IMG/VR virus record: IMGVR_UViG_2740892423_000027
DNA: 44,568 bases
DNA from: a virus
Taxonomy: Duplodnaviria; Heunggongvirae; Uroviricota; Caudoviricetes
Strand: one strand, 5' to 3'
The position numbers were made by a program, and so were the translations under genes. Under the pieces are notes generated by a model. The model had not been told where the DNA came from, did not search any database, and was given only the letters and a program-made list of their open reading frames with translations. Each line of letters opens with the position of its first letter. Positions within the stretch are counted from its first letter, which is position 1. Of this stretch, positions 7,559 to 27,733 are shown piece after piece.

Positions 7559-7630
7559 TGTTTACCCTTCGTAAAAAAGCCCCTGCACAGCGAACCATGC
7601 AGAGGCTTAAGCACTTCTCAATTTCGCGTT

Positions 7631-8662: not shown

Positions 8663-8675
8663 TTAAAGCTCCCGA

Positions 8676-9536
8676 TTAAAGTAAGACCAGCGCGCAGCTG
8701 TCGGTGTTGTTCCAGGTAAGGAAGCCCGTAGCGCTGTCATAGCTGACAGTTTTAGAGTTCCCACTCTCGATGGAGATGACTTTCACCGGCAGGGTGATGT
8801 CTGCCTGAGCCACAGCGCCGATAGCGCCCTGCGTGGTCGCGGAGCCGCCCGGCGCGCTGGCAGGCGCATAGGTGAAGGTTGTCGTACTCGGTACGGTCAG
8901 CACAACGACGGTGCCGTTATAGGCAGCCGGATCTACGCCGCTGATCTTCACGTACTGGCCTGCAGTCAGACCATGTGCAGAGGCAGTGGTGGCGGTGGCC
9001 ACGCCATTCGAGTAGGTAACAGCGGTCGTGTCAATGTCAGCACCGGAAAAAGCCGCCGCGGCTGCGGTGGTCACCTGGTTATTGACGAAGTCCCACGCCA
9101 GCGGCGTTTTCACCGATGCGCCAGCGGTTCCCAGTGCGACCACCTGCGCTGAAGCTTTCAGCGGAACGCGCATGTTGGAGCCAAGGCGATAGAATGAAAC
9201 GCTCATGCCGGACGCATACAGCGGAACTGGTGATTGCGGAGTGGTAAGCCCGTTGTGGGCCTGGTTGAAGACGGTGAAGCCTTCGAGCTCAGCCAGTGAT
9301 ACAGCGCGACGAATAGTCGACCCGCGAGGGCTGGAATTCACGCCGGACAGCAACTCGGCAACCGGCAGGCCACCCCACAGCGGTTTGGTTTCGGTGGCGG
9401 CGACAGTGCCGGAAGCCAGGTTAAAGCGGTTTGCCGGATCATCCAGAGCAACACCCTGAATGAAGCCATCAGACTGCACACCGAAGGAACCAGCGGCATT
9501 CGTGGTCGCCATCGGGTTAAGAGATAAATTAGCCAT
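8676..9536 (-). CDS. Capsid accessory/decoration-like protein
   Basis: 286-aa Ala/Thr/Gly-rich ORF between scaffold-like gene and major capsid gene. Confidence 0.4.
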   Translation of the reverse strand: MANLSLNPMATTNAAGSFGVQSDGFIQGVALDDPANRFNLASGTVAATETKPLWGGLPVAELLSGVNSSPRGSTIRRAVSLAELEGFTVFNQAHNGLTTPQSPVPLYASGMSVSFYRLGSNMRVPLKASAQVVALGTAGASVKTPLAWDFVNNQVTTAAAAAFSGADIDTTAVTYSNGVATATTASAHGLTAGQYVKISGVDPAAYNGTVVVLTVPSTTTFTYAPASAPGGSATTQGAIGAVAQADITLPVKVISIESGNSKTVSYDSATGFLTWNNTDSCALVLL

Positions 9537-9551
9537 GCTTCAGAGCTCCCG

Positions 9552-11168
<1,617 letters not shown>

Positions 11169-11177
11169 TTAATGCTC

Positions 11178-11999
11178 CTATGCTGCTTTCATGGACTCCA
11201 GGAACTTGCGGCCCTTCTGGGTCAGCATGTCCTCGGGAATGCTGCGGAGGTTGTACAGATAGGTGACGTAGCACCGACAGAAAACCTCTTCGCCAGGCTG
11301 CGTAATTTCGTCGAGATAGCCGGCAGGGCCAGCTTTGACATAGCCATTTTTCTGCGCCCAGTTCCCGCGGATGAGATAGATCAGCTTGTCCCTCTCCTTG
11401 TGATCTTCCCGGTAGTCGTACCCTGGCTGGCGCCAGTGGCTATGCCACTCGGCAGCAATCGCGTTGTTGCCCGTCGCGATGATGTTGTCGATATTGGCGA
11501 TCAGCTTATGGCTCTGGTCAATCATCACGCGGCGCGCTTCATAGTCCACCTTCTCGGCGGCCTTCTGAATGTGCGCCGCCGTCTCCCGCATCGTTCCCTG
11601 AATGCCGGTCAGCGCAATGCTGTCTGCTGAGGGAATGCTGCTGGCCCATCCGCTAAACCGCGACAGAGTAGTGTCGATGGCTTTCTTGCGATTCAGCTTT
11701 ATCAGGTCAACGCTGGCCAGGATGCGGCGATCCAGCTCGCTGCGTAACTTCGGCTCCATGTAGTTCAGCGTGAAGCGTGAAAGCCCCTTGTGGCGCTCCA
11801 GCGCTCCAGCCTTGCTCACCTGCAGGTCATAGGTCTTACGCAACCGATCGGACACCATGCTCATGTAGTCGTCATCAGTTTCGCTTTCGGCCGCTTGCCG
11901 GATAATGGCCTGCCATTGCTCCAGCTCCTGCCGCGAGGTGTAGCCATTGCGCAGAAAGAACTTCACCGCCTCGCGTACGGTGCGCGTGAAAGTCTTCAT
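11178..11999 (-). CDS. Head morphogenesis protein (minor head protein, Mu F / SPP1 gp7-like)
   Basis: 273-aa ORF directly downstream of portal with 4-nt overlap; conserved position of F-like morphogenesis genes; family assignment by position and weak recollection. Confidence 0.45.
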   Translation of the reverse strand: MKTFTRTVREAVKFFLRNGYTSRQELEQWQAIIRQAAESETDDDYMSMVSDRLRKTYDLQVSKAGALERHKGLSRFTLNYMEPKLRSELDRRILASVDLIKLNRKKAIDTTLSRFSGWASSIPSADSIALTGIQGTMRETAAHIQKAAEKVDYEARRVMIDQSHKLIANIDNIIATGNNAIAAEWHSHWRQPGYDYREDHKERDKLIYLIRGNWAQKNGYVKAGPAGYLDEITQPGEEVFCRCYVTYLYNLRSIPEDMLTQKGRKFLESMKAA

Positions 12000-13411
12000 A
12001 GCATCATCCCGCCGCCGGGCTCTTCATCCCGTGGCTGTTCAGGCCGGTTAGCCTTTAACGAGTCGATATCGAGATCAAGTCGCTGCGGGAACAGGCTTTC
12101 GTTAGCGTTCGCGTTGGTCTGCGCCCACTCGATAAGAAGCGCGCGGTTCTCATCATCCGTGTTGACCTGCGGGAGAAGGACTTCCAGCATGCTGACGATG
12201 GCCTTAAAGCGGATTTCGTCGACCTTCACTTTTTCGCTTTCCGGCTCTTTCAGGGATGACGGCCAGCGATATTCGAAGTTGTTAATCCATGAGGAGAAAT
12301 ACAGGCTGTACGTGTTTTTAAGCTCCGGGAAGTCAGCACGCAGAGAATTGAAAAACTCAATGCTCCAGGCGCGATACTGGCAAATACGGATGAAATAGTC
12401 ATACAGCGGCTCAAGCCACTCGCGGATGTTGTCGATGTAGACTGCAACAGATCGAGCGTCTTCCGTCCCCTCGCCGAAGCCCTGGGCGAATGTTTCCGAG
12501 TTCAGAATGATAGCCGGCATGTCAGCTGCCGCAGCGATATTCTCCAGAATGTGATTCCGGGAGGAGTCGAGCGGCTTTTCCAGGTTGCTCAGGTCGATGG
12601 ATTCGATGCTGTCATTTGCGCCGATCTGCAGGACCTCGCCTGTCTTCCCTCGCTTCAGCATCATTCGTTTGATGCCGCTGAGCTTTTGCATCATGTTGTT
12701 GACGACTGAGCTCGGTCCCTGAATCTTCGTTACCAGCAAGCCACCCTTCACGGAAACCATGTCATCGGTGCGCATGGTCTGGATGAAGGATTTCAGCGGG
12801 AACAGAGCGCGCTGGTAAACGCTGCGACCGGTAAAGCCAAAGGCAGCAGAGTTATAGGCCAGATAAATCGGGTCCTCGTTCTGTTGCACAACACAGCGGG
12901 ATTTGTGATACGGCTTGCCCGCCACTCTGATCCCGTCGACCTTCTGAAAGTCCTGCGCGTTCGGATCCTGGTTCAGGACGATGCTTCCGGCAGTGTTCAG
13001 CGGGTCGAGAATGTTGAATGTCACGTTGTGCTTATACAGCGTGCGGTAGTCCACCGCAGAGGACGGCTCCTGGTTATCAACCAGCATTGCGATCGCCGAA
13101 ACACCGTAAATGCGAGAGATGCGCGCCGCATTAGCGATGTGCTTATCGGCGCCCAGTGCTTTCCACTCCCGCTCAAATGCATCGCGGAGACGCTGCTCAA
13201 TGCCATACGCCTGCGAAATGTGAACCGTGCGCGACTCGTTCATCGCCATCTTGATCGGGCGATCTACCATTTTCCCGCCCAACGGGTGGAAGAGGTAAAT
13301 CGTTTTGCAGGTCTGATAGCCAGCCGACATACCCGGCTGAATGTCATCGCTGTCCAGGAGCGTGATCAGCTCCGGCGAGCAACTGCCGATTGCGATATCA
13401 TCTTCGTTCAT
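11996..13411 (-). CDS. Portal protein
   Basis: 471-aa acidic protein immediately downstream of terminase large subunit; conserved gene order. Confidence 0.6.
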   Translation of the reverse strand: MNEDDIAIGSCSPELITLLDSDDIQPGMSAGYQTCKTIYLFHPLGGKMVDRPIKMAMNESRTVHISQAYGIEQRLRDAFEREWKALGADKHIANAARISRIYGVSAIAMLVDNQEPSSAVDYRTLYKHNVTFNILDPLNTAGSIVLNQDPNAQDFQKVDGIRVAGKPYHKSRCVVQQNEDPIYLAYNSAAFGFTGRSVYQRALFPLKSFIQTMRTDDMVSVKGGLLVTKIQGPSSVVNNMMQKLSGIKRMMLKRGKTGEVLQIGANDSIESIDLSNLEKPLDSSRNHILENIAAAADMPAIILNSETFAQGFGEGTEDARSVAVYIDNIREWLEPLYDYFIRICQYRAWSIEFFNSLRADFPELKNTYSLYFSSWINNFEYRWPSSLKEPESEKVKVDEIRFKAIVSMLEVLLPQVNTDDENRALLIEWAQTNANANESLFPQRLDLDIDSLKANRPEQPRDEEPGGGMML

Positions 13412-13422
13412 TGGTTTTCTCG

Positions 13423-14754
13423 CTAGAGTGCGTCGCCGCTACCGAACGCGATGATCAGCCCGTAGGTGTAATCATCCAGCAAATCGTCGGCGCGCTTGTG
13501 CGCGTTCTTATCGGCAAGGTGGAATCGTGATACCTGCTTATGCAGATGGTTTGCTGTTTCGCCCTTGAAGACTGCCGTCTTCTCGTAGGCGTATCGGGAT
13601 ATTTTCGCCAGCCCGCGGTAGTGATACCCAGAGGCCATAATGGCGCGCTCGTCCTTCCCTTTGCTGGTCAGGGAGGATTCAATTTTGTTGACCGGCCATC
13701 CCAGGCTCTCGCCTTTCTGCAGAAGGATGCTTCCCATACTGGCGTCTTCAATGAAAACGCCGAGGCTGCCATTTACAGCGACGCACTGGCCGGATAGCTC
13801 ATTCAGCCGGGTGAAAACGGACGGAATCCACTCTTCCAGCAGCGCGCCGTCGATCTGCACCACATCCCAGTCAAGAATGGTCAGGCGCTGAATTCCGGGC
13901 CGGGTGTCTACGGCGTAGTAAACCACCGCCGTGCCGTCGTGATCAGTACCGCCCTTAACGGCGGTATCCATGACAGCGAAAACGGCCTGGCACATCTCAG
14001 GGTAATCGACAGGCTGATCCTGGTTTTCACCCTCGAACCATTTGCGGACGTCGAACAGCGACGCAGCGGACCAGTCGACGAACTCGGCCAGGAACTCCTG
14101 CCGGAAAACGCGAGGATCGTTGTTCTGTCGCTCTTTCTCCAGCTCCTCGGGAGGAACGAAGGGGTTTGATGACGTCGGCGCGTGATGCTCATGGAAGCCG
14201 AGGTCTTTGTTATGGCAGATGGCATAGAAGAAGTTTTCTTCATCCACACCGTCAGGCGTTGAGAATACGTAGGCCCGGCCTTTTGTCGTCAGTAGCGTCG
14301 GCTTAATCGACTTCGGCCAGATTTCCTTCAGCATTTCAGGCGACTTGGTAAAAGCCGCCTCATCGATCAGGATAATTTCGTACTCACGACCACGACCGGC
14401 CAGTTTGTTGTCGTTGGTGACCCAGAAGTCAATCTTCCCGCCGTTCTTCAGCAGCAGGCGCTTTTCCTGCCGGCTGAAACTCTTTTTCAGCGGCAACAGG
14501 ATTTCTTCCAGCTTGTCGTAGATCTCCTGGTACTGGCGATACTCGGCAGTGAAGATACCGACCCGGCCGCCCAGCTCGATGTCCATGCCCGGGCGCCGAA
14601 ACTGCGACGTTGCGTAGGTCACCGCGGCGCTCGACAGCATGAAGGTTTTCCCCCAGCGTCGACCACAGCGAACCGCATTCAACTGGTGATCCCAGGAATC
14701 AGACCAGACCGTTAACTGCCCGTTGTGTAGCGTGGGTAGGTAAATGTCGGCCAT
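13423..14754 (-). CDS. Terminase large subunit
   Basis: 443 aa; N-terminal Walker A-like GRRWGKT; C-terminal nuclease-like acidic residues; follows small subunit gene. Confidence 0.85.
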   Translation of the reverse strand: MADIYLPTLHNGQLTVWSDSWDHQLNAVRCGRRWGKTFMLSSAAVTYATSQFRRPGMDIELGGRVGIFTAEYRQYQEIYDKLEEILLPLKKSFSRQEKRLLLKNGGKIDFWVTNDNKLAGRGREYEIILIDEAAFTKSPEMLKEIWPKSIKPTLLTTKGRAYVFSTPDGVDEENFFYAICHNKDLGFHEHHAPTSSNPFVPPEELEKERQNNDPRVFRQEFLAEFVDWSAASLFDVRKWFEGENQDQPVDYPEMCQAVFAVMDTAVKGGTDHDGTAVVYYAVDTRPGIQRLTILDWDVVQIDGALLEEWIPSVFTRLNELSGQCVAVNGSLGVFIEDASMGSILLQKGESLGWPVNKIESSLTSKGKDERAIMASGYHYRGLAKISRYAYEKTAVFKGETANHLHKQVSRFHLADKNAHKRADDLLDDYTYGLIIAFGSGDAL

Positions 14755-14757
14755 GAT

Positions 14758-15498
14758 TTATCTTCCCGGTATTGGCAGCGAGTTATGCACGACGATCGCG
14801 TTATCCTTGTCGCCGTCTTTCAGTACATCAATTTCGAGCTCAACCTTTTCGGTCGCGGCTTCGCGGTAAGCGGCATCAACGCGCTGCTTGATAATCGCCG
14901 CCTTGGTGTACTCCAGCGACTCAATGCGCGCAGTGTTGCGATGCATGGCTTTCTGCGCCTGAGAGATGAGGTCGTGCAGATCTTTGGCCTGCTCGCTGGC
15001 GGCTGTCTCCAGCTCTGTCTGCCAGCGCCCGATATTCTCTGCCGCTGTCAGGCTCGCCGCTCGCAGCCAGAAAAGCTCATCGTCGAGCGTGAGCATCTGG
15101 GCATCTTCGGTGATGGCGTCAGAGAGCAGCATCCGGCGGCCATAGCCACCATGCTTTAATGCGTTCTGGTTGCCAGGCTGGAAGGCGTTCGTCGGCGGAG
15201 CAGTGCGCGATCCGCGTATCGGTTTCGTTTCTGGAGATTTTGAGTGGGCGCCTGTGTCGGGCTGGTTTTTTTTCACCTCCCCGTTTTTACTGACCCCGCC
15301 TTTCTCCTTCTGCGAATTCGCAGATTTGTTCGCACTTTTTTTTTGCGAATTCGCACCGTAAGTCGTTACTTTGATATAGCGTTTCGCAGATGAGTAATTC
15401 AGTCCCTGCGCTGCGCACCAGTCTTTCGGGGATATTCCTGTTTTGGCATGCTCGGCGAGGAACTGGTGTTGCAGTGCTCCCCAGTCCGGTTTTGCCAT
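14758..15498 (-). CDS. Terminase small subunit (putative)
   Basis: 246 aa, N-terminal HTH-like segment (GISPKDWCAAQGLNYSSAKRY), immediately upstream of large subunit with 3-nt spacing; contains palindromic DNA repeats. Confidence 0.5.
   Translation of the reverse strand: MAKPDWGALQHQFLAEHAKTGISPKDWCAAQGLNYSSAKRYIKVTTYGANSQKKSANKSANSQKEKGGVSKNGEVKKNQPDTGAHSKSPETKPIRGSRTAPPTNAFQPGNQNALKHGGYGRRMLLSDAITEDAQMLTLDDELFWLRAASLTAAENIGRWQTELETAASEQAKDLHDLISQAQKAMHRNTARIESLEYTKAAIIKQRVDAAYREAATEKVELEIDVLKDGDKDNAIVVHNSLPIPGR
15311..15355. repeat. Two identical 12-bp palindromes TGCGAATTCGCA, 33 bp apart, inside terminase small subunit gene (pac-site candidate)
   Basis: Exact copies at 15311-15322 and 15344-15355, separated by a T-run. 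Confidence 0.5.
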
Positions 15499-15558
15499 AG
15501 TCCTTACCTCGTTGTGACATTATCGAGCCACCTCTGGAAGTGGCTCTGTAATGCCCGA

Positions 15559-16143
15559 TCAGTCCTTAATGAACTCTTCCGTGTGAATGCCGATTTCACC
15601 AGTAAGCAGCTGAGCACTGGTTGCGTCGATGTTCACTGATGTATGAGGGTTGGCGTTTTCGTTAAGCCATTTGATTACGGGCTTCACCACGTCTTCGAAG
15701 GAGGAGCTGCGAGCCTTATTAACGTCGGCAACGTGGCAGTCACCAAGGCACGGACCGCGACCAAGGAAGCAGTTAATACAGGCATGGTCATGGATTTTTT
15801 CTGGCGCCTTTGCTGCGCCCGCGCCACCAATGACGGCTCGGCATTTGGAAATCTGAGGCTCAAGGTGGATGGTAATGTCTACCCCCTCACTTTTGTCGCC
15901 ATCATCTTCACACACCGGGAAGCAACGCACACTGTCAACGAGGTGGTCACGAAAGATACGTGTTTCCAGCGAATCGGGTGCTGTAAATAACTCAATATTT
16001 ACTCCGGAACCGAGATTAATTTTCGGTTTATCTCTCGAGTACCCCTCAAACAATAGGCTTTCGACCAGATTGCGGGCGTTGATAATGCTGGAAGGCTGAG
16101 AAAGCTGCAGAAGCTGAACTTTCCAATACTTGATAACTTTCAT
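15559..16143 (-). CDS. Hypothetical Cys/His-rich protein between lysis cassette and terminase
   Basis: ATG at 16143 preceded by AAAGGAAAA; contains CFPVC and HDHACINCFLGRGPCLGDCH clusters suggesting metal binding; family not recognised. Confidence 0.5.
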   Translation of the reverse strand: MKVIKYWKVQLLQLSQPSSIINARNLVESLLFEGYSRDKPKINLGSGVNIELFTAPDSLETRIFRDHLVDSVRCFPVCEDDGDKSEGVDITIHLEPQISKCRAVIGGAGAAKAPEKIHDHACINCFLGRGPCLGDCHVADVNKARSSSFEDVVKPVIKWLNENANPHTSVNIDATSAQLLTGEIGIHTEEFIKD

Positions 16144-16294
16144 GCTGTTTTCCTTTAGGTGTGAGCCTGTCGTACAGGAACGCCGCCCGAGAGAGGTCGC
16201 CACCTTTAACGGCGCTCCTCAGGCTCACGACTGAAAGACTCTCGATGGTTTGCGTGTACGATACGCATTAAAAAGCCCCGCTATTGCGAGGCTG

Positions 16295-16762
16295 TTATTT
16301 CAGGCACTGCGTGGTGATGTATTCCTGCAGGGCTCTCAGGGCTGTTTGGTCGCTGAGGATTCCGGACCGGATACCGAGAACGTTTCGTCCAGCAACTGCA
16401 GAGAGTTCGACGGTGGCATCATTGCCCATGCCGGAGGCGCTGGAGGTTTTGGCTGAGGCTGGCACAGGGCATTTTCCTTTGACGAGCACCCGACCACCAT
16501 TATCAAGCTTGCGCCGAAGAGCATCATTTTCAGCTTTCGCATCCGCTAACTCCTTTGTGTATTTAGCATCGAGTGCATCTGCATCACGCTGGCGCTGCTG
16601 CATGTCAGTAATGGTGGCGTTCACCTTCTCCAGTTCACTGGCCTTGTTATCGCGCTGCTCTTTGTAGGCGATGGCGTTATCACGGTAATGATTAACAGCC
16701 CATGACAGGCAAACGATGATGCAGATAACCAGAGCTGAGATAATCGCGGTTACTCTGCTCAT
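16295..16762 (-). CDS. Rz: Rz i-spanin
   Basis: N-terminal about 85 residues near-identical to lambda Rz ([31 protein letters not shown]...[17 protein letters not shown]); C-terminal half diverges; overlaps R stop (ATGA). Confidence 0.9.
16336..16542 (-). CDS. Rz1: Rz1 o-spanin lipoprotein, embedded in +1 frame of Rz
   Basis: Embedded [24 protein letters not shown] with lipobox Cys and Pro-rich region, matching lambda Rz1 architecture. Confidence 0.8.
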
Positions 16763-17235
16763 ACCTCAATCTCTCTGACCGTTCCGCCAGCTTCTTTGAA
16801 TTTTGCAATCAGGCTGTCAGCCTTATGCTCGAACTGACCATAACCAGCGCCCGGCAGTGAAGCCCAGATATTGCTGCAACGGTCGATTGCCTGACGAATA
16901 TCACCGTGGTCAATCATCGGTAAAGCGCCACGCTCTTTAATCTGTTGCAGTGCCACAGCGTCCTGGCTTTTCGGAGAGAAGTCTTTCAGGCCAAGCTGCT
17001 TGCGGTAGGCATCCCACCAACGGGAAAGAAGCTGGTAGCGTCCGGCGGCTGTTGATTTGAGTTTGGGGTTTAGCGTGACAAGTTTGCGAGGGTGATCGGA
17101 GTAATCAGTGAACAGCTCTCCGCCAACAATGACGTCATAACCATGATTTCTGGTTTTCTGCCGTCCGTTATCAGTTCCCTCTGACCACGCCAGCATATCG
17201 AGGAACGCCTTACGTTGATTATTGATTTCCACCAT
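16759..17235 (-). CDS. R: Endolysin R (lytic transglycosylase)
   Basis: 158 aa, near-identical to lambda R ([53 protein letters not shown]...). Confidence 0.95.
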
Positions 17236-17542
17236 CTTCTACTCCGGCTTTTTTAGCAGCGAAGCGTTTGATAAGCGAACCAATCGAGTCAGTACCGATG
17301 TAGCCGATGAACACGCTCGTTATATAAGCGAGATTGCTACTTAGTCCGGCGAAGTCGAGAAGGTCACGAATGAACCAGGCGATAATGGCGCACATCGTTG
17401 CGTCGATTACTGTTTTTGTAAACGCACCGCCATTATATCTGCCGCGAAGGTACGCCATTGCAAACGCAAGGATTGCCCCGATGCCTTGTTCCTTTGCCGC
17501 GAGAATGGCGGCTAACAGGTCATGTTTTTCTGGCATCTTCAT
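17219..17542 (-). CDS. S: Holin S (dual-start S107/S105 type)
   Basis: 107 aa, essentially identical to lambda S ([69 protein letters not shown]...). Confidence 0.95.
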
Positions 17543-17663
17543 GTCTTAGCCCCAATAAGGGGATTTGCTCTATTTATTTAGGAATAAGGTCGATTACTGA
17601 TAGAACAAATCCAGGCTACTGTGTTTAGTAATCAGATTTGTTCGTGACCGATATGCACGGGCA

Positions 17664-17697
17664 AAACGGCAGGAGGTTGTTAGCGCGACCTCCTGCC
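17664..17697 (-). terminator. Strong hairpin between tRNAs and holin (tR'-like candidate on late transcript)
   Basis: 10-bp perfect stem GGCAGGAGGT/ACCTCCTGCC with 10-nt loop at 17668-17697; on the minus strand it is followed by GTTTTG. Confidence 0.4.
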
Positions 17698-17784
17698 ACC
17701 CGCTTTCACGAAGATCATGTGTAGAAGGCCGCAGCGTAACTATCACTGATGAATTCAGGATAGTCAGTGGCTACGGCTCAGTTA

Positions 17785-17860
17785 TGGTGCTGGTTAACGG
17801 ACTTGAACCGCTACCCATTCGCTTACAAGGCGACTGCTCTACCATTGGAGCTAAACCAGC
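17785..17860 (-). tRNA. tRNA-Thr (anticodon UGU), phage-borne
   Basis: Manual cloverleaf: 7/7 acceptor pairs, 4-bp D stem, anticodon stem with loop CUUGUAA, T-loop UUCAAGU, encoded 3' CCA; folded by hand only. Confidence 0.7.
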
Positions 17861-17865
17861 ATGTT

Positions 17866-17940
17866 TGGCGGGACAGCGTGGACTCGAACCACGATAAGAA
17901 GGTTAACAGCCTTCCGTAATGACCTTTATACGACTGACCC
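17866..17940 (-). tRNA. tRNA-Asn (anticodon GUU), phage-borne
   Basis: Manual cloverleaf: anticodon stem GAAGG/CCUUC with loop CUGUUAA, T arm CGUGG-UUCGAGU-CCACG, encoded CCA; one mismatch each in acceptor and D stems. Confidence 0.55.
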
Positions 17941-18004
17941 AAATAAAAAAAATCCACCGTTGCAACTTAAGAGTCACTAACGGCAGCTTACCTTCTAATT
18001 ATGG

Positions 18005-18523
18005 CTAAATGGATAATTGCATGTCAAGGCCTTTAACAGCAACATGCTTAACTTTCTCAACACGTTTACGCATTTTGAAAGCATTTTGCATTGGCTGGTA
18101 CAAAACAAATAACGACGCTTTCAGGATGTCGTCAATTTCGTTTCTACAGGTTGCCAGTGAAGGTTTTCTCCATCCCTCGCCACCACGTCCACACATCTTG
18201 CGTGGCTTTGCAGTCGCGTGATAGTAGGATGCAATTGCTCGCTTAGATGAACCATGAGCGTAGTAGCTTAGGAGGATGCCAAAGGCTTTCTTGTCAATGT
18301 ACATGACGGAATCGACGACCTGAGAAATCAACATTCCATCATCATCATTACACATTGGCCTTGTCATAACTCTTCCCGGCTCTACGCTCTCCATGAACTT
18401 CGCTATTACGCTGCTCATGCGCTTTTCCAGACGACCTGAATAAACCCATGCGCCCCACAGTTCAAGCCAGCCATTCAGCCACTCATGCTGTTCTTTGGTG
18501 AGGTTTAGTTCTCTTATGCCCAC
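18005..18523 (-). CDS. Late-gene antiterminator Q (Phage_antitermQ / QuuD-82-like family)
   Basis: 172 aa with [11 protein letters not shown] and RPMCNDDD motifs resembling QuuD-type Q proteins; canonical position between nin/phosphatase genes and the lysis cassette. Confidence 0.65.
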
Positions 18524-19185
18524 GCGCCTTCTCCCTGTACCTGAATCAATGTGAGGTTTCCGCAGAACACTGCGCCGGTATCGATATACATCTGGTTGGC
18601 AAATTTGAGTGGTTTCACTGCTGGCGTATGACCAAAGATGAACGTGTCCGCGCCTTTGATTTCTTTCACGATCCCGTCTTGTGAGTTGCCGATTCGTTCG
18701 CGGTTCCAGATTACCTGCTGATGATCAACTGGCTTTCCAAACTCGTATTCATCACAAGGATAATCGGCGTGGCAAATGACATATTTTTTACCTTTGCTCA
18801 CCAGTTCGATGATTAACGGAAGTTCTTCTGCTTTATGGGCAAGAGCTTTAGCCAGAATCTCTTTGTCGTAATCGAGATTGAAGAACCAGCCACCGCCATT
18901 AAGCAGCCAGTGATTAACGTTTCCACGCTCTGATAAGCCATCAATCATCATTTGCTCATGGTTTCCACGTACAGCTCTGAACCAGGGGAATGTGATTAAT
19001 TCCAGGCATTCAACGTTCTCTGCACCACGATCAACCAAATCTCCCACCGAGATAAGCAGGTCTTTTTTGTTGTCGAATCCAATCGTATCCAGTTTGTTCA
19101 TCAGGTTCGTGTAGCATCCGTGCAGATCGCCAACTACCCAAATATTTCGGTATTTGCTGCCATCAATTCTTTCGTAGATATTCAT
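18514..19185 (-). CDS. Ser/Thr protein phosphatase (lambda PPase, NinI-like)
   Basis: 223 aa near-identical to lambda phosphatase: [22 protein letters not shown] and GNHE metallophosphatase motifs. Confidence 0.9.
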
Positions 19186-19787
19186 GCAGCCTCACTTCTG
19201 CTGTTTCGCAGTTTTTTAAGTTTCTGTTGATACTCCGCCTTGATGGTCCTGCACTCTTCGACAGTCCAGCGATGGCGGTTATGGTTTGATTCGATTTCGT
19301 CTACTGCTTCCTGCCCGATGCGGCTAATCAGTTCGACGCGATACGGAACGAGATTTCCGCTTTTGTGCTGGTTGCACACCACGCATTGCTTGTGAATATT
19401 GCGTTCATCAAATCGGAGTTGAGGTGCCGCAGCAGTTGTCCGGTAATGTCCGGCATCCCACTGAGCAGACGTGAGCGTTCCGCACGAGATACATGGTAAG
19501 TCGCGGTCTCTTTCTCTGATGAAGGCGTTTACGGCTTGTTGGGCTTGTTTAATCCAGTAACTGCGGTGCTTTAAGGCGAGTTTTCGAATCTTCAGTTTAT
19601 CTTTCTGTTTCTGCTCCTCTCGTCGTCGTTTCTTCTCTGCTGCTTTTTCCGCTTTTTTTCGCTGTTTACTTTGTAGTTTGAGTGCTAACTGAGTTCCGTG
19701 TTCCGGGCAGCACCACCACTGATTTGAGAATGCCGGGTGAAACCATTCCTTGCATATTTTGCATTTCCTTCGCGCTGGTTTAGCCAT
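19182..19787 (-). CDS. ninG: NinG (Rap) recombination protein
   Basis: 201 aa, N-terminus [31 protein letters not shown] characteristic of lambda NinG; ATGA coupling to phosphatase gene. Confidence 0.9.
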
Positions 19788-19956
19788 CGTCTTCTTCCTC
19801 GTACATTGAGCTATTCGGATCGCTCATCAGTTCTGCACAGCAGTGCTCACACACGTGAACTTCCAGCACATGCAGCTTCTGACCGCAGTTAGCGCACGTT
19901 AAAGCCCGCTCGACGCTTTCTTTCTGGTATTGGAGGGATTGGGATGGGCTAAGCAT
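19780..19956 (-). CDS. ninF: NinF
   Basis: 58-aa ORF (below ORF-track cutoff) translated manually: [58 protein letters not shown], matching lambda NinF; stop overlaps ninG start. Confidence 0.85.
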
Positions 19957-20308
19957 TATTGGCGTCCTGCATCATGAGAAAGACAATCATGGCGGCGCGG
20001 AGGGAATTTTCATGTATAGCTCGCTTAGATTTACAGTCGGCCACACCACGTGCACCCCACTCGTCTTCATCGAGATTGATGATGCTAATCCTGTACTTCT
20101 CAATAATCGGCCATGAGGCGCTAGGATCATTGCAGTAGTCAGGCAAAGGGTTTAATGGCTCAAAAGTTGTATCAGCATTTCCGTAATACCATTTGTTGGT
20201 GTTATTCCCTGATGTTTCCGGTTTACATGCCCAAAGGCCTTTAAAAATTATGTCTCCTACCATTCTGTTAATTTCAAAATCACTTAACTGTGAATAATCC
20301 ATTGTCAT
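19949..20308 (-). CDS. Nin-region protein (NinX-like, hypothetical)
   Basis: ATG at 20308 overlaps ninE stop (ATGA); product [19 protein letters not shown]...; sits between ninE and ninF where P22-like phages carry ninX. Confidence 0.4.
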
Positions 20309-20481
20309 TTCCTCGCACGATGTCTTAGCCACCGGATATCCCACAGGTGAGCCGTGTAGTTGAAGGTTTTTACGTCAGATTCTTTTGGGATTGGCTTGCG
20401 TTTATTTCTGGAACGTTTCGTTGGAAGGTATTTGCAGTTTTCGCAGATTATGTCGGTGATACTTCGTCGCTGTCGTCTCAT
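20305..20481 (-). CDS. ninE: NinE
   Basis: 58-aa ORF translated manually: [58 protein letters not shown], matching lambda NinE; start overlaps ninB stop. Confidence 0.85.
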
Positions 20482-20888
20482 TCGTACCTCCTGTCGATAA
20501 ATCTGACACCCTGACCAATAGCCCAGGCTGTTGTGTACTCGATCAGACTTGCCATACGCTTCACGCTCATCTGCGCGCTGCTTTCGCGAATGTTGACGAA
20601 TTCGCCTTCAAGGCCGCGCAAAACATCAGCTTCCTGTTTTGTTGCCACTGCATGACCGCTAATCAACAAAACCTTCCACTGTTCCGGTTTTAACCATTTG
20701 CCGCACCATTGAACCTGACGAGCGATATCCGCCAGCATCGCGTGAAATTTTGCGTTCTGGTCAAGATTGCGCTTGTAGTCAGTAATGCGGATGGTGACTG
20801 GCTTGTCTTTATCGAGTGGTGTTGCGAGGATGGCATTTATTGCGGCTTGCTGTTGTTGCTTACTTCGGAGGAAGATTGTTTGCTTCAT
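20478..20888 (-). CDS. ninB: NinB (Orf-family recombination mediator)
   Basis: 136 aa with [11 protein letters not shown] and [16 protein letters not shown] segments paralleling lambda NinB. Confidence 0.75.
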
Positions 20889-20890
20889 CG

Positions 20891-21235
20891 TTACTCCTTC
20901 AATTTGACTCCAGCAGCGCGGATGTTTTCCTCATAAGCATCCATTGCATCACTGAAGCCATTGGAATAATCAACAGTAAACCCTTTGGCTAATGCTTCTC
21001 TGCTGTCGATAAACTTTGGCGCGGTTATTTCAATAGCTGATCGCGATGCCTGCCACGTTTGCCAGTGGCCTTGAACATCGTCCATCACGTATTGACCACC
21101 AATATCACCACTGCCAATTTCATGGTGATTTTCAGGGTAACGGATAAGGTCTGAAGATTCGCCCCCACGTCGCAACCAGCTTTCTTCAAACTGCTTTCTT
21201 GATTCGTCCATATCAATCCCCGTTAGTCGTTTCAC
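20891..21235 (-). CDS. Hypothetical nin-region protein
   Basis: 114-aa ORF, 3-nt spacing to ninB; product not recognised. Confidence 0.4.
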   Translation of the reverse strand: MKRLTGIDMDESRKQFEESWLRRGGESSDLIRYPENHHEIGSGDIGGQYVMDDVQGHWQTWQASRSAIEITAPKFIDSREALAKGFTVDYSNGFSDAMDAYEENIRAAGVKLKE

Positions 21236-21434
21236 TCACGAATCTGACAAAACCAGCCATGTTAATTTGCATGAGTTTTTTCAACACTTTGTCTCGCCGG
21301 CTACGTTTTGGTTTTGGCCTGTGGTTGAATCTTTCACAAACTGGAAGGCTTGATGATTTCCAGTACCTATTACGCCTTGCTCCATCTTCCGCCATATCGG
21401 CATGAATAAGGTCTGCTAGTGTGCTCATATTCAC
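21213..21434 (-). CDS. Hypothetical small basic protein
   Basis: 73-aa ORF overlapping next gene by 23 nt; start uncertain. Confidence 0.3.
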   Translation of the reverse strand: MNMSTLADLIHADMAEDGARRNRYWKSSSLPVCERFNHRPKPKRSRRDKVLKKLMQINMAGFVRFVSETTNGD

Positions 21435-21443
21435 CTCTTCCAG

Positions 21444-21644
21444 TTACATTGGTTTTGTAATGTTGCTAGTCATCGTTCGAATAACAAAATGCGTAAGTAA
21501 CCTTGCTTTCCACATGTAAATCTCTTCAAGGCGAGATAAATCTACGAATACCGGACCTTTGTAATCTGGTCTTGATGCCCTTATGTATGAGCTAATAGTT
21601 TGTGCATCTTGCTCGTCCAGATTCATGACTTCCCTCTCCCCCAA
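21444..21644 (-). CDS. Hypothetical small protein (ren position)
   Basis: 66-aa ORF directly downstream of helicase gene. Confidence 0.3.
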   Translation of the reverse strand: MGEREVMNLDEQDAQTISSYIRASRPDYKGPVFVDLSRLEEIYMWKARLLTHFVIRTMTSNITKPM

Positions 21645-21699
21645 ATAAAAAGGCCTGCGATTACCAGCAGGCCTGTTACAAGCTCAGTGATGTAGATGG

Positions 21700-23076
21700 T
21701 CATACGTCAGCCCCTTGTGCATATCGTCTGCCACGTGCAGCAGGTGCATTTGATGTTGTGCAAATCTGTCTGGCTTCATCCTGGTCACATGCAACAAAGT
21801 GTCCGTTGCAGAACCGCTGGTAAACCGTACCAAGCGAGCCAAAACGGTTTTTCGTCACGATGATTTCAGCAAATGGCGCGGCGCTACTGTTCTCGTCATA
21901 TACCGCTTCCCGATAGAGCATGATGATTGAGTCTGCGTCCTGTTCAATGCTTCCAGAATCACGCAAATCTGCGTTTGTCGGGCGTTTGTTTGGTCGCTTC
22001 TCAACATCGCGCGAAAGCTGACTCAGGGAGATAACAGGCGTTTTCAGGTCTTTCGCCATCGCCTTCAGGCTTCCGGAGATGTGAGCAATTGCGAGGTCGT
22101 TGCGGTCTGCTTTCGGCTTCTCAATCAGGCCAAGATAATCCGCCATGATGAGTGACAGATTTGGATTTTCCTGTTTGTGCCGTTCTGCGATTGAGCGTAT
22201 TTCTTCGACCGATAACCGCGAGGCATCGACAACCCATACATCCAAATCTGCAAGCTGACTCATGCCGTTAGCAACACGTGCCCAGCCTTCGTCATCCATC
22301 GCTGCAGGATTTCGCAGCACACTAACCGACATCCTCCCGGCGTTGGCAATGCTTCGCTCTGCAATCTGCAATGCGCTCATTTCCATTGAGAAAATCAATA
22401 CCCCGCGCCGGACGTCAGAACCAGGAATAACGCGGCTTGCAACGCCTTCGGCAATCTTCAGCGCCAGTTCGGTTTTCCCCATACCAGGACGAGCAGCGAT
22501 TATCACAAGGTCTTCTGCGTTCATCCCTCCGGTGATGGCGTCAAGTTCTTCGATTCCGGTCTTCAGGGTATCTGACTCTTCTCCGTTCCTCAGACGCCTG
22601 TCAAGCGTGTCGGTGTAGTCAGTGATGATTTCCCCTAACCGTACAGGTTTAACCTCGTCACGGGGCTTTCTGATGGCTGAAAGACGCTTTACAAGCTCGT
22701 CCATCGCCTGACTCGATGTATCGATGGTTCCGCTCTGAATTGGTTCACGCATTTCATCCATGATTTCCAGCACCAGACGGCGGTGATAGTTATCCGCGAC
22801 CATTCCGGCATATCCCTTCAGGTTTGCGGCGCTCGGGCAGTTTTTGCTGGTCATCAGGATTGAGGTGAAATGCTCCTCTCCGCACGCCTCGGCAACCATC
22901 AGCGCGTCGATTAGGTTTCTGTTTCTCGCCTGCTTGCGGATAACCTCGAAGGCTTTCCGGTAGAGCGGAATTGAAAACGCTTCCGGCTCCAGCGTTGCCA
23001 GAACGTCGCTGGCGGTTGGAGTTAATCCACCAATCAGCAGGCCACCGATAACGCTCGCTTCGATATCCTGTCTCAT
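21700..23076 (-). CDS. Replicative DNA helicase, DnaB family
   Basis: 458 aa; Walker [13 protein letters not shown] and RecA-like C-terminal domain; overlaps O-like gene stop (ATGA). Confidence 0.85.
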
Positions 23077-24020
23077 GCTATCCCCCTGTCTGCAAACTTC
23101 CCCTCCCGTACTCCCGTTAACGAATCTTCCCTCAACAGGTAATCAAAATCAGCTATCCAGCCCGTGTCGTTGTCTCCGAAGTAAAACGGCTTGGCCTGAT
23201 GCACAAACGCCCTGACATACGCTCTGAAACCGTCCACGTTTGGCGTTTTCAGTTGCGGGATGATTTTCTTCAGGCGGCGTTTGCGTTTCTCGTTGACCGC
23301 AACAGCGTGTGGAAGTCTGTCACCGACTTCGGTGTTGTAGGCGTTCAGGAAGGATTCGTAGTCGATTCGTTCTGCCTTTCGACGTTCAGGTTTAACCTGC
23401 CCATCACCTCCCCCATTGGGGGGTAGGGGGGTATTATTTATATTCTTGTTAATACCTTCTTGTTCATGATGTGCGGTTGTTTGTGCGGCTTCATGTGCGC
23501 TTTCATGTGCGGCATGCACTCTGAAAGCCGCGCCATTGCTGGCTTCGTCATGTGCGGCATCATGTGCGGTTGTTTGTGCGGCTTCATGTGCGGGTGAATC
23601 GTCCATTTTTTGAGCATATTCATGGTAATTTGTGATGGTAATCACACGACCTTTTTGCTTCTCTCCATCAATGGTGATCATCCCCTCTTTCACAAAAACC
23701 TGAAGCATCCGCTCAACCTGATCACGGCTTGCTGGCTTGCCATGCCTGTCGCATAACTGAAGACCTAAATCAGCTGCTGTCACAACCAGTTGACCGGGTT
23801 GCAGATGCCATTCATGACCTTTGAAATTCGCTTTGTATGGCTTTCTGGCGGCATTCAGGAGAAGGTTTTCCCACAGGGTGCGAAGATAAACATCTTTCGC
23901 CCATGACTGTTTCAGAATGCTCCGGTACAACGGAATGTAACCAGTTTTCTGGTTCTCCATCCTGTTGCTCCTGCGCTCGTGTGCGGCGCTGAAATCGTAG
24001 ATTTTTGCTGTATTGCTCAT
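23073..24020 (-). CDS. Replication initiator, lambda O-like, with internal iteron-encoded repeat
   Basis: N-terminus [10 protein letters not shown] parallels lambda O MTNTAKILNF; central repeated HEAAQTTAH peptide encoded by DNA iterons; coupled to helicase gene. Confidence 0.7.
23465..23593. repeat. Iteron cluster: about 8 direct copies of (C/T)ATGTGCGG inside O-like gene (candidate replication origin)
   Basis: Copies near 23468, 23483, 23493, 23505, 23549, 23562, 23575 and 23585; two longer units catgatgtgcggttgtttgtgcggcttcatgtgcg and catcatgtgcggttgtttgtgcggcttcatgtgcg. Confidence 0.6.
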
Positions 24021-24066
24021 AACTACCTGCCTTGACGAAAGACCTTAAGAACATCGTTAAACTGAC

Positions 24067-24294
24067 TTACGGATATGTCTTCTTTGAGAAGCTTTTCCAG
24101 AAATGCGTTTGGAATGAACGTATATCCCTCCCTTTTGGTAGAGACGGGAGCAACGCCCTCGCCTCAGCCTTCAGAAGCTCAGTTCTGGCAACTTTCACAA
24201 AAGAGATTTGAGTTCTTTCATCAATGGAACGAAGGAAGCGCAAACGCTTAGCTTCTTTGTGTGTATCAGGTGGATTAAAGCCTTTGTTTCGCAT
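24067..24294 (-). CDS. Possible small ORF between cII and O-like gene (doubtful)
   Basis: 75-aa frame from internal ATG of a longer ORF that otherwise overlaps cII; no recognisable product. Confidence 0.15.
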   Translation of the reverse strand: MRNKGFNPPDTHKEAKRLRFLRSIDERTQISFVKVARTELLKAEARALLPSLPKGRDIRSFQTHFWKSFSKKTYP

Positions 24295-24316
24295 ATAATT
24301 ACCTCGTTGGATGTTA

Positions 24317-24616
24317 TTAAAATTCCATCTGGATTTGTTCAGAACGCTCGGTCTTGCACACCGGGCGTTTTTTCTTTGTGATTTCAGCAAGCGCATACTT
24401 AAAAGCCCTACTAATCGGACTGATGTCTGATGCCATTCCGAAAGCACACAAGACTGAAGCAATAAATCTCCAGTCCGTTCTGCTTATCTTCGATTCATGA
24501 CAGCCAATCATCTTTGCCAGACCGCGCTGGGTAAGCGTTGACAGGTTGATGAGTAAATCTGTTTCTGCGCGATCAACATCGCGCTGTGATAGTTTGCTGT
24601 AACTTGTTCTTTCCAT
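24317..24616 (-). CDS. cII: CII transcriptional activator
   Basis: 99 aa; C-terminus KKKRPVCKTERSEQIQMEF matches lambda CII tail (TNKKRPAATERSEQIQMEF); HTH segment ESKISRTDW parallels lambda KSQISRWKRDW. Confidence 0.8.
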   Translation of the reverse strand: MERTSYSKLSQRDVDRAETDLLINLSTLTQRGLAKMIGCHESKISRTDWRFIASVLCAFGMASDISPISRAFKYALAEITKKKRPVCKTERSEQIQMEF

Positions 24617-24701
24617 TTCTTAAGATTTCCAATAGTGAATAGTTAGTTGAAAGGTATGCGTGGAAACGCATATGGCCTTAGTTGGTCAGATATCTTGGGG
24701 C

Positions 24702-24748
24702 TCGCTTTTCAGCGACGTAGGACGAATGTCCATTGTTACAAAGAGCGG
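24702..24748 (-). promoter_or_regulatory. nutR-like site (boxA-like CGCTCTTTG and boxB-like hairpin TCGCT-GAAA-AGCGA on minus-strand transcript)
   Basis: Minus-strand boxA-like at 24736-24747 and stem-loop at 24702-24715, between cro stop and cII. Confidence 0.4.
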
Positions 24749-24754
24749 GGTTAC

Positions 24755-24982
24755 TTATGCAGCCAGAAGGTTCTTTTTGCTTATTTCAAGCATTTCGCTT
24801 GCTTGATATTTGCCACCAGAAATCTCTTCGATTTTTGATGCGTATTTAGTTTTCCCAAAAAACTCAGTCTTAGGGAGGAAGCCGTTTTTGAGCCACTTAT
24901 AGACAGCCCTTTCGCTAACTCCACAAGCCTTCGCAACTTCAGGGATGCCGACACCTTTAATCGGCTCATCAAGATTTTGCAT
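24755..24982 (-). CDS. cro: Cro-like repressor (HTH)
   Basis: 75-aa ORF divergent from cI; HTH-like segment VAKACGVSERAVYKWLKNG; canonical position. Confidence 0.6.
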   Translation of the reverse strand: MQNLDEPIKGVGIPEVAKACGVSERAVYKWLKNGFLPKTEFFGKTKYASKIEEISGGKYQASEMLEISKKNLLAA

Positions 24983-25061
24983 AGGAATATCCTTTTTTCG
25001 TACTTTCAGTACGCATTATGGTTGAACTGAAAGTTTTTGCAAGTGCTTTAGTATCGTACTC
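24983..25061. promoter_or_regulatory. OR-like operator/promoter region between divergent cro and cI
   Basis: Three related repeats sharing ACTTTCAGT/ACTGAAAGT or CGTACT: CGTACTTTCAGTACG (24999-25013), TGAACTGAAAGTT (25023-25035), TATCGTACTC (about 25050-25061). Confidence 0.6.
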
Positions 25062-25769
25062 ATGGTTCAGAATGAAAAAGTGCGCAAAGAATTCGCCCAG
25101 CGGCTAGCGCAAGCCTGTAAAGAAGCTGGTCTTGATGAACATGGTAGGGGGATGGCCATAGCCCGTGCCCTTTCTCTTTCGTCCAAAGGCGTTAGCAAAT
25201 GGTTTAATGCTGAGTCTTTACCGCGCCAGGAAAAAATGAATGCGCTTGCGAAATTTCTAAACGTTGATGTTGTTTGGCTTCAGCACGGCACTTCGTTAAA
25301 TGGAGCGAATGATGAAGATACTCTTTCATTTGTTGGCAAATTAAAAAAAGGGTTAGTGCGCGTGGTTGGTGAGGCAATTCTTGGTGTTGATGGTGCCATC
25401 GAGATGACCGAAGAGCGCGATGGGTGGCTCAAAATTTATAGCGATGATCCAGATGCCTTTGGTCTTCGTGTGAAAGGAGACAGCATGTGGCCCAGAATAA
25501 AATCAGGAGAATATGTACTCATTGAGCCTAACACCAAAGTATTCCCGGGTGATGAGGTGTTTGTCAGAACCGTTGAAGGACACAACATGATTAAGGTTCT
25601 TGGCTATGACAGAGATGGAGAATACCAATTTACAAGCATTAACCAGGACCACAGGCCAATAACGTTGCCTTATCATCAAGTAGCAAAGGTGGAGTATGTG
25701 GCTGGTATTCTGAAGCAATCTCGCCATCTGGATGACATCGAGGCAAGGGAGTGGCTGAAAAATTCGTGA
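25062..25769 (+). CDS. cI: CI-type repressor with LexA-like S24 autopeptidase domain
   Basis: 235 aa; N-terminal HTH region; C-terminal GDSMWP catalytic-serine motif of S24 peptidases; divergent from cro. Confidence 0.85.
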   Translation: MVQNEKVRKEFAQRLAQACKEAGLDEHGRGMAIARALSLSSKGVSKWFNAESLPRQEKMNALAKFLNVDVVWLQHGTSLNGANDEDTLSFVGKLKKGLVRVVGEAILGVDGAIEMTEERDGWLKIYSDDPDAFGLRVKGDSMWPRIKSGEYVLIEPNTKVFPGDEVFVRTVEGHNMIKVLGYDRDGEYQFTSINQDHRPITLPYHQVAKVEYVAGILKQSRHLDDIEAREWLKNS

Positions 25770-25892
25770 CTTCATCGTCACATAGCTGGTAGCCAGTGGC
25801 CTGAAGAGACGTTTGGGTAATTCCAATTGTGATTAATAAAAAACCGATAGTGCAACATGTTATTGTAAATTGTTGATATAGCAAGGTATCAC

Positions 25893-26795
25893 ATGAGCCA
25901 AAATCTTGATTCAACACTAGAAACATACATTTCTTGGCAGTTAGAGCAATTTAAAAATAACTTTTTCCCAAGCTGCGACGTCATAGCGTACTACGGTGGT
26001 ATCTTTCCATGGTCAAAAGAAGTTTACCAACCAAAACTTGAGGCTATTGGGGAGATGGCTAACAGTCGTACCAATAGATTTCTAGTTATTATACTCAATA
26101 CAAATGGTGGCTCTGTTGAGTCTGTGGAAAAAATGGTAGAAATTACAAGGCATTTCTATCAAGAGGTATATTTTATCATTCCAGATATGGCCATGTCGGC
26201 AGGCACAATATGGTGTATGTCTGGAGATAAAATTTACATGAACTATGCTTCTTCATTAGGCCCCATTGACCCTCAAGTGCAATCCTCTGACGGTAAATGG
26301 GTTCCTGCTTTGGGATACCTTGATAAAGTTGAAGAAATGATTACTAAATCCAGAGAAGGAACCATTACCCAAGCTGAACTAATGATGCTTAGTCAGTTAG
26401 ATCTTGCGCACTTAAGGAGATACGAGCAAGCCAGAGAGCTATCAATAGACTTGCTTAAGAAGTGGCTTGTAGAGTATAAATTCAGAGAGTGGACGGTTCA
26501 TCAAGGTAACACAAAACGAGGAAAGCTAGTTTCCAAGAGGGAAAAAGAAGCAAGAGCTAAAATGATCGCTACCGCTCTTAGTGACAACGGAAAGTGGCAT
26601 TCTCACGGAAGAACGATAGGAATAAATACTCTTATCAATGACTTAAGAATTAAAGTAGAAGACTTTACATACGACAAAGATTTTAGCATGGCGTTAAAAA
26701 ATCTGCACAACGTCATTAATGAATACATGTATAAGACAAATCGACAGGTTCTTGTTCTGTCTTCATTCCCCTTCTCAGAACAAAGTGAGTCATAA
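25893..26795 (+). CDS. ClpP/S49-clan serine protease-like protein (rex-position cargo)
   Basis: 300 aa; LNTNGGSVESVEKMVEITRHF...IIPDMAMSAGTIW aligns with the ClpP/SppA NSPGG...AASMG catalytic-Ser region; AT-rich relative to flanks; immediately downstream of cI. Confidence 0.55.
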   Translation: MSQNLDSTLETYISWQLEQFKNNFFPSCDVIAYYGGIFPWSKEVYQPKLEAIGEMANSRTNRFLVIILNTNGGSVESVEKMVEITRHFYQEVYFIIPDMAMSAGTIWCMSGDKIYMNYASSLGPIDPQVQSSDGKWVPALGYLDKVEEMITKSREGTITQAELMMLSQLDLAHLRRYEQARELSIDLLKKWLVEYKFREWTVHQGNTKRGKLVSKREKEARAKMIATALSDNGKWHSHGRTIGINTLINDLRIKVEDFTYDKDFSMALKNLHNVINEYMYKTNRQVLVLSSFPFSEQSES

Positions 26796-26966
26796 ATGAG
26801 CAAAGACAAATCACTGACACAGCAAGTGGCAGAAATACTTAGCAAGCAAAAAGTTAGCGAGCAAGGTAAAATGATTCAATCATTAAAGAACAACGGATTG
26901 ATCAACAAGCCTGTTTTTACTTTGGCTTATGGACCTGATACTACAGTCTGCCAAATGCACCAATAA
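26796..26966 (+). CDS. Small ORF coupled to protease gene (hypothetical, 56 aa)
   Basis: ATG at 26796 directly after protease stop; product MSKDKSLTQQVAEILSKQKVSEQGKMIQSLKNNGLINKPVFTLAYGPDTTVCQMHQ; followed by terminator. Confidence 0.35.
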   Translation: MSKDKSLTQQVAEILSKQKVSEQGKMIQSLKNNGLINKPVFTLAYGPDTTVCQMHQ

Positions 26967-26976
26967 CAAAACCCCA

Positions 26977-27002
26977 CCCGGCCTCAGCGCCGGGTTTTCT
27001 TT
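26977..27002 (+). terminator. Rho-independent terminator after cI-protease cassette
   Basis: CCCGGC-CTCAGC-GCCGGG hairpin followed by TTTTCTTT. Confidence 0.7.
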
Positions 27003-27172
27003 GCCTCACGATCGCCCTCCCATATTTAATAGCCGCAAATGTGGTAAACCGCGAACCAACTCACCAGCAATACCCCCTCCAACTACAGACCAATCTGCAG
27101 CATTTACAAAAATAAATTTCCTTATATATCAAAATTATATCTCGTTGCATTAATAAATCACAAAATTTTCGT

Positions 27173-27205
27173 ACCAATAGTTCTTGATAATGTCGAACTA
27201 TTGGT
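27173..27205. promoter_or_regulatory. OL/pL-region inverted repeat ACCAATAGTTC..GAACTATTGGT
   Basis: 11-bp perfect arms with 11-bp spacer; overlaps a TTGATA -35-like hexamer; upstream of nutL and N. Confidence 0.45.
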
Positions 27206-27257
27206 TCAATATTGTCACATCAGCAGGACGCTGGAAGCCAAACGGAACAGACTGGCA

Positions 27258-27285
27258 GGCTCTTTAAACAACGTCGAACACTCGA
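27258..27285 (+). promoter_or_regulatory. nutL-like site (boxA GCTCTTTAA + boxB hairpin GTCGA-ACAC-TCGAC)
   Basis: boxA-like at 27258-27266, 5-bp stem hairpin at 27272-27285, about 120 nt upstream of N. Confidence 0.5.
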
Positions 27286-27402
27286 CTACGTGGCTGAAAA
27301 GCCAGATCACCCAACCACATAAGCTGTGGGATGCAATGCCGAAGCAACCGTCTCAGGAGGGGCTTCGAGATTGCATCGCCAAAGTTTATTCGGGAGGAAT
27401 CC

Positions 27403-27675: not shown

Positions 27676-27733
27676 CTTGTGTTGGTCGCCAGAAAACGAA
27701 GGGCAAATCCATCGCATTAATCTGAGGTGGCCC

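Follow-up and report, generated by a model that had tools for sequence, protein, structure and literature searches.

Why does a temperate phage keep two tRNA genes, and when would it make use of them? The question is raised by a stretch of 44,568 nucleotides of Caudoviricetes DNA (IMG/VR record IMGVR_UViG_2740892423_000027), here called the window, which holds a lambdoid prophage. Between the late antiterminator gene Q and the lysis genes of this prophage, the initial annotation had placed two adjacent tRNA genes on the minus strand, one for threonine and one for asparagine, from cloverleaves folded by hand. These very probably form a functional Asn-Thr tRNA cassette in the late-operon leader of a mosaic lambdoid prophage, which is most likely transcribed by Q-dependent read-through and may boost late decoding.

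The two tRNA genes

The first gene in the direction of transcription, tRNA-Asn (GUU), occupies positions 17866-17940 of the minus strand. It is followed by tRNA-Thr (UGU) at 17785-17860, and the sequence reads only five nucleotides between them, AACAT (17861-17865, minus strand). ARAGORN finds exactly two tRNA genes in the whole 44.6-kb window, Thr (tgt) and Asn (gtt). Both genes also match the Rfam model RF00005 over its full length, with 61.5 bits (E 4.8e-11) for tRNA-Thr and 55.3 bits (E 2.4e-9) for tRNA-Asn; the gathering score of the model is 29. Each gene encodes its own CCA, preceded by the discriminator base A in tRNA-Thr and G in tRNA-Asn. When each sequence is folded alone, the minimum-free-energy structure is a cloverleaf.

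ARAGORN, Rfam and the sequence itself thus bear out the hand-made assignment to the base, including both isotypes, the coordinates, the strand, the spacing and the encoded CCA. The isotypes that ARAGORN returns are those read manually from the anticodons. The two stem mismatches reported for the Asn candidate are also real. One, U4.U69, falls in the acceptor stem and the other, U13.U22, in the D stem. In tRNA-Thr, the uppermost position of the anticodon stem is mismatched (G27.A43).

Alignments with homologues describe how the stems have changed. The Asn alignment joins the gene of the window with its homologue from a Klebsiella lambdoid phage and with those of four virulent phages (Mosigvirus, Eneladusvirus, Stephanstirmvirinae and Gualtarvirus). 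Among these six phage sequences 94.4% of cells are paired, and 10 of the 21 pairs show compensatory changes. For tRNA-Thr, where the window gene was aligned with six homologues, phage P1 and E. coli thrU among them, 95.2% of cells are paired and 11 of 21 pairs changed in a compensatory manner. None of 500 shuffles reached the observed covariation score for either tRNA. Slid controls gave 19-52% of cells paired (36-46% in the case of Asn) against the 94-95% observed. The mismatch U13.U22 is common to five of the six aligned Asn sequences and U4.U69 to the two lambdoid copies, so that both are best regarded as tolerated features rather than signs of decay.

The bases expected for charging by the host are in place as well. 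tRNA-Thr (17785-17860) has G1-C72, C2-G71, G35 and U36, the established identity elements for ThrRS, and tRNA-Asn (17866-17940) has G34, U35, U36 and the discriminator G73, those for AsnRS. Both sequences are bona fide tRNA genes, kept under structural selection. A pseudogene or att-site fragment was considered and rejected, because both genes are full-length, high-scoring and covarying.

Position in the late operon

The tRNA genes lie between a gene for a late antiterminator and a lysis cassette, as had been proposed, and the flanking reading frames match Pfam Phage_antitermQ and Phage_holin_3_1. All the elements are on the minus strand, and their order along the late operon is Q, PR', tR', tRNA-Asn, tRNA-Thr, S. 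Q (18005-18523, 90.3 bits to Phage_antitermQ) is of the Q21/Sf6 type. It is 83% identical to the Q of phage 21, with a diverged C-terminal part, and its homologue in Sf6 is gene 59, annotated as Q-like.

The late promoter PR' (17998-18027) overlaps the end of Q. It consists of TTGACA, an 18-nt spacer and CATAAT, which matches 11 of 12 positions, and the same sequence carries the PR' annotation in Sf6 and HK75. It is followed by the leader terminator tR' (17941-17986), a hairpin with a run of eight T (dG -17.3 kcal/mol, z -3.3). In Sf6 and HK75 this element bears the tR' annotation, and the short “aRNA” transcript of phage 21 has an identical sequence as its 3' part. In that phage, the annotated short PR' transcript ends exactly where an identical tRNA-Asn begins. 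A simple terminator scan, with its loop and T-run criteria, called neither tR' nor a second hairpin further downstream; both were judged by folding and by the annotations of Sf6, HK75 and phage 21.

On the other side of the tRNAs lies the lysis cassette. It begins with the holin gene S (17219-17542), followed downstream by R (16759-17235) and then Rz (16295-16762). The three genes are of lambda type, are covered by the Pfam families Phage_holin_3_1 and Phage_lysis, and have annotated counterparts in Sf6.

From which promoter are the tRNAs transcribed? For such tRNAs, it is described as not known whether they have a promoter of their own or are excised from the late mRNA (phage L; PMC8022706). 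In the window, a scan of the minus strand from 17400 to 18200 for sigma-70-like sites found PR' and no separate tRNA promoter. Only 3 nt separate the end of the tR' T-run from tRNA-Asn, a distance that a separate promoter does not fit. A promoter of their own is therefore unlikely, and the pair is most likely transcribed from PR' after Q-mediated read-through.

Related cassettes in other phages

The feature is already known: the pair is an ordinary member of the phage 21/Sf6 type of late-leader tRNA cassette. Over its 156 bp it shows 100% identity to phage 21 and to two Salmonella phages, recorded as S135 and P6. Identity is 99.4% for SPN9CC and further Salmonella phage records, and about 99% for Sf6 and BTP1-type phages. 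The 1001 bp around the pair are 98.0% identical in Sf6, where the tRNAs (Sf6t01 and Sf6t02) are annotated as “similar to phage 21”. The copies in E. coli genomes are routinely annotated as tRNA-Asn and tRNA-Thr by the NCBI pipeline (PGAP).

Several papers mention the genes. The tandem of Asn-GUU and Thr-UGU genes downstream of Q was described in SfI, together with one or both tRNAs at the same position in Sf6, ST64T, PS3 and phage 21 (PMC3636060). Asn and Thr tRNAs at this position in Sf6 are also mentioned in the paper on phage L (PMC8022706), and the same pair was noted in a Salmonella prophage in the epsilon34 paper. The claim that lambdoid phages carry tRNA genes here is thus supported by the Sf6 annotation, by these three papers and, for Stx phages, by PMC7547250.

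Within the cassette itself no difference was found between the window and the cassettes of the phage 21/Sf6 type. Phage 21, Sf6, SPN9CC, BTP1, SfI and E. coli prophages share the order Asn then Thr, the 5-nt spacer and the encoded CCA, and in this type the cassette directly follows tR', in a unit with PR' and a Q of the Q21 family, and precedes the holin gene. The differences lie outside it. The C-terminus of Q and the PR' region in the window are of Sf6 rather than phage 21 type, and the virion module is not P22-like but myovirus-like and related to Klebsiella phages. A sharp mosaic junction is visible when 17941-18040 is compared with phage 21: the two differ in the C-terminus of Q and in the PR'/Q-binding region but have an identical tR' hairpin and identical tRNAs.

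A more distant likeness is found in the Stx phages, which the initial annotation had taken as its notable precedent. Their tRNA clusters (also that of 933W) presumably carry the isotypes Ile and Arg, unlike the pair in the window. The position agrees: clusters such as that of Sp5 are likewise placed in the leader of the late operon, after Q, PR' and tR' (PMC7547250). However, in Stx phages toxin cargo follows the tRNAs, and a separate start mapped between tR' and the tRNAs of an Stx2 phage seems to drive them (PMC7547250). In the window, there is neither toxin nor other cargo between the tRNAs and the lysis genes, nor room for such a promoter. The comparison therefore holds for the position, but the closest precedent is the Asn-Thr pair of phage 21 and Sf6.

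Other phages show how the pair can vary. In phage L and ST64T, the Asn gene occupies the same slot after Q, and in phage L it is 100% identical. The second gene of phage L differs: it is a rearranged Thr-like tRNA, published as Leu-UAA. This “tRNA-Leu(UAA)” (681-752 of the examined record) has the acceptor, D and T arms of the Thr gene in the window, with the anticodon arm replaced and shortened. ARAGORN reports no tRNA here, and the Rfam match, in which the anticodon loop is shortened, scores 42.1 bits; the gene may be degenerate or encode an unusual tRNA. In the Klebsiella phage ST16-OXA48phi5.2, a 91% identical Asn gene lies in the same slot after Q; it differs in being part of a four-tRNA array, Asn-Phe-Thr-Arg.

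The temperate coliphage P1 also has a tandem of Asn(GUU) and Thr(UGU) in the same order, with a 2-nt spacer (1425-1578 of the examined record). Here, however, the tRNAs lie downstream of the C1-controlled ban promoters, and the Asn and Thr genes are only 52% and 75% identical to those of the window. The same isotype pair thus recurs in temperate coliphages in an unrelated context.

A probable role in decoding late genes

The role of the cassette is most likely to provide extra decoding capacity for ACA/ACG and AAC/AAU codons during late synthesis, which is held with moderate confidence. The same codon-supply reading has been given for SfI (PMC3636060) and phage L (PMC8022706). As the geometry of the leader suggests, Q would let RNA polymerase from PR' pass tR' late in lytic growth, so that the tRNA pair would be transcribed. 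The late transcript would then be cut by host RNase P at the 5' ends of the tRNAs and by endo- and exonucleases at their 3' ends, where the CCA is already encoded. The tRNAs would be charged by the ThrRS and AsnRS of the host, and would help to decode the Thr codons ACA/ACG and the Asn codons AAC/AAU while virion proteins are being made in a burst.

A comparison of codon usage in the late genes with that in a host sample gave a mixed answer. Codons were counted in greedily called ORFs. The late genes comprise the minus strand of 1-17542 (5625 codons), and the reference is a 50-kb sample of E. coli K-12 with ORFs called in the same way. Per 1000 codons, the late genes have 28.8 ACA+ACG against 17.7 in the K-12 sample, and 49.2 AAC+AAU against 35.6. 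The matching codons are thus 1.4-1.6-fold in excess over the K-12 sample, and ACG, ACA and AAC rank within the top 14 late-gene codons by enrichment. In the probable capsid gene (7631-8662, a weak major-head match), AAC accounts for 13 of the 15 Asn codons, a preference shared with phage L.

On the other hand, 22 of the 30 Thr codons of the probable capsid gene are ACC and only one is ACA, so that a UGU tRNA is hardly needed there. ACA is also more frequent outside the late genes: it reaches 14.2 per 1000 codons in the early genes and 13.9 in the neighbouring element, against 8.4 in the late genes and 5.2 in the K-12 sample. The best-matched codon of tRNA-Thr therefore peaks in genes that are read before the tRNA is expected to be produced. 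As a share of Thr codons, ACA makes up 31% in the early genes (18005-34000), 12% in the late genes (1-17542) and 10% in the K-12 sample. As for asparagine, E. coli K-12 has four tRNA-Asn genes, so that its decoding is not obviously limiting. The support for a codon-supply role is modest.

Alternative explanations

Could the pair be kept for another reason? The tandem might be a spare set against tRNases that strike outside the anticodon loop, or a lysogenic-conversion function that works through leak-through at tR'. This broader claim seems unlikely. The recurrence of the Asn-Thr tandem in lambdoid phages and P1, together with an Asn lineage that is shared with virulent phages, is what makes the spare set conceivable.

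In the form of a counter-defence, the phage tRNAs would replace or outlast host tRNA-Asn and tRNA-Thr that are hit by colicin E5-type or acceptor-stem tRNases, or by the anticodon nucleases of abortive infection. Such a role is favoured by the low resemblance between the phage tRNA bodies and those of the host. tRNA-Asn is 58% identical to asnT and has a completely different acceptor stem, and tRNA-Thr is 66% identical to thrU. The Asn gene lineage is common to virulent phages (Mosigvirus, Gualtarvirus, Stephanstirmvirinae and jumbo Erwinia phages) rather than to the host. P1 holds the same Asn-then-Thr tandem independently, and colicin E5 cleaves tRNA-Asn among others. However, the seven-nucleotide anticodon loops are those of the host in 7 of 7 positions, CUUGUAA as in E. 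coli thrU and CUGUUAA as in asnT. The documented escape from nucleases by a changed anticodon loop is therefore rejected here. A literature search for a defence specific to tRNA-Thr or tRNA-Asn also found nothing specific. On balance, a counter-defence is decidedly improbable as the reason for keeping the pair.

Another explanation is that the pair is a near-neutral passenger, or “moron”, which is spread by recombination at conserved flanks and does nothing measurable for the phage. The slot between the flanks is indeed variable. In HK75, CUS-3, HK629 and lambda the flanks are as in the window, tR' at one end and the sequence from AACTGAGCCGTAGCC onward at the other; roughly 1500 E. coli genomes have them too. 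The DNA between these flanks in all four phages is unrelated to the tRNAs: it is non-coding in HK75 and CUS-3, and HK629 has a gene for an HNH endonuclease. None of the four has the tRNA pair, and ARAGORN finds no tRNA genes in the slot of HK75, CUS-3 or HK629. Since relatives share the flanks and hold other DNA, the tRNA pair is a dispensable, exchangeable cassette. It is 99-100% identical across unrelated virion modules and absent from close relatives, so it is neither tuned to one set of genes nor essential, which also counts against codon supply.

A permissive Rfam search for tRNA remnants found nothing in lambda and only a sub-threshold, tmRNA-like 3' fragment in HK75. The latter consists of a T-arm and an acceptor-like part (1386-1444 of the examined record, minus strand; RF00023, 20.2 bits, E 7e-5). 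The idea that the right boundary of the slot is a universal tRNA relic was dropped, as no remnants beyond this fragment were found.

The apparent degeneration of the second tRNA of phage L would also suit a passenger. The pattern of substitutions does not. The E. coli and Klebsiella lambdoid copies differ by compensatory substitutions in three pairs of tRNA-Asn and two pairs of tRNA-Thr. The pair is also present in 369 of 5426 complete E. coli genomes (about 7%), with 97-100% conservation. Compensatory substitutions and this conservation indicate purifying selection on functional tRNAs, and a passenger without effect is very unlikely.

Finally, the tRNAs might serve the lysogen. Transcripts from a constitutive PR' would leak through tR' and stop at a second hairpin (17664-17697) before S, and low levels of the tRNAs would aid acquired genes rich in ACA and AAU. 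Lysogens of lambdoid phages have a constitutively active PR' (PMC7547250), the tRNAs are flanked by two terminator-like hairpins, and the enrichment of ACA in the early genes and the neighbouring element would fit. A literature search for expression data on BTP1 or prophage tRNAs gave nothing usable.

The nature of the second hairpin bears on this possibility. tRNA-Thr is followed by a non-coding S leader (17543-17784, minus strand), which alignments with Sf6, HK75, CUS-3 and lambda identify as a conserved, lambda-type sequence of relatives with and without tRNAs. Its 242 nt, down to the start of S at 17542, are about 97% identical to the non-coding DNA upstream of S in lambda. No credible ORF was found between tRNA-Thr and the S start, where the sole ORF is a mechanical one of 50 aa that starts with GTG and runs across the hairpin. 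The initial annotation was thus right that no cargo ORF lies here.

It had also pointed to a strong hairpin at 17664-17697 (minus strand), and the hairpin is there. A 10-bp G+C-rich stem (17668-17697) is followed by GUUUUG; the fold has a dG of -28.2 kcal/mol (z -4.1), and none of 200 shuffles folds as well. The 30-nt stem-loop is identical to lambda 45031-45060, and in CUS-3 the stem has a compensatory change from G-C to U-A. Because the hairpin is found in relatives without tRNAs, it belongs to the S leader and not to the tRNA cassette. It is possible that it acts as a second, weak terminator, and the late leader of lambda reportedly holds tandem terminators. However, only four U follow the stem, the terminator scan does not call the hairpin, and its presence in lambda and other relatives without tRNAs means that it did not evolve for the cassette. 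Expression in the lysogen is accordingly the least probable of these explanations.

The surrounding prophage

The cassette is set in a composite genome. Judging from sequence similarities, the prophage is a cross-genus mosaic that combines a virion module like those of Klebsiella phages, S, R and Rz of lambda type, and a Q of Sf6 type. The virion module (1-15570) is myovirus-like, with a tail sheath gene at 3899-5293, and is about 96% identical to the Klebsiella phages Chronis, RothC and RothD. An ORF of about 200 aa (15559-16203, minus strand) lies between Rz and the gene for the small terminase, a typical “moron” position. It has no Pfam match, and its only match is a PHROG of unknown function.

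The lambdoid prophage is adjoined by what looks like a P4-like satellite (34066-44568). This has genes for an integrase (34066-35397) and for a primase-helicase with Zn-ribbon, Toprim and DUF927 domains (38199-40871), followed by two Psu-family ORFs (41272-42563). A large ORF on the minus strand (43105-44568) extends beyond the end of the window; it has a C-terminal SEC-C motif and may be hotspot cargo.

Significance

As a discovery the cassette has little weight, since it is annotated in Sf6 and in E. coli genomes and several publications have dealt with it. For annotation it offers a clean anchor at the junction of the late operon that leads from Q, PR' and tR' to S. It also provides a small, well-defined test case for the question of why a temperate phage should retain a tRNA gene or two.
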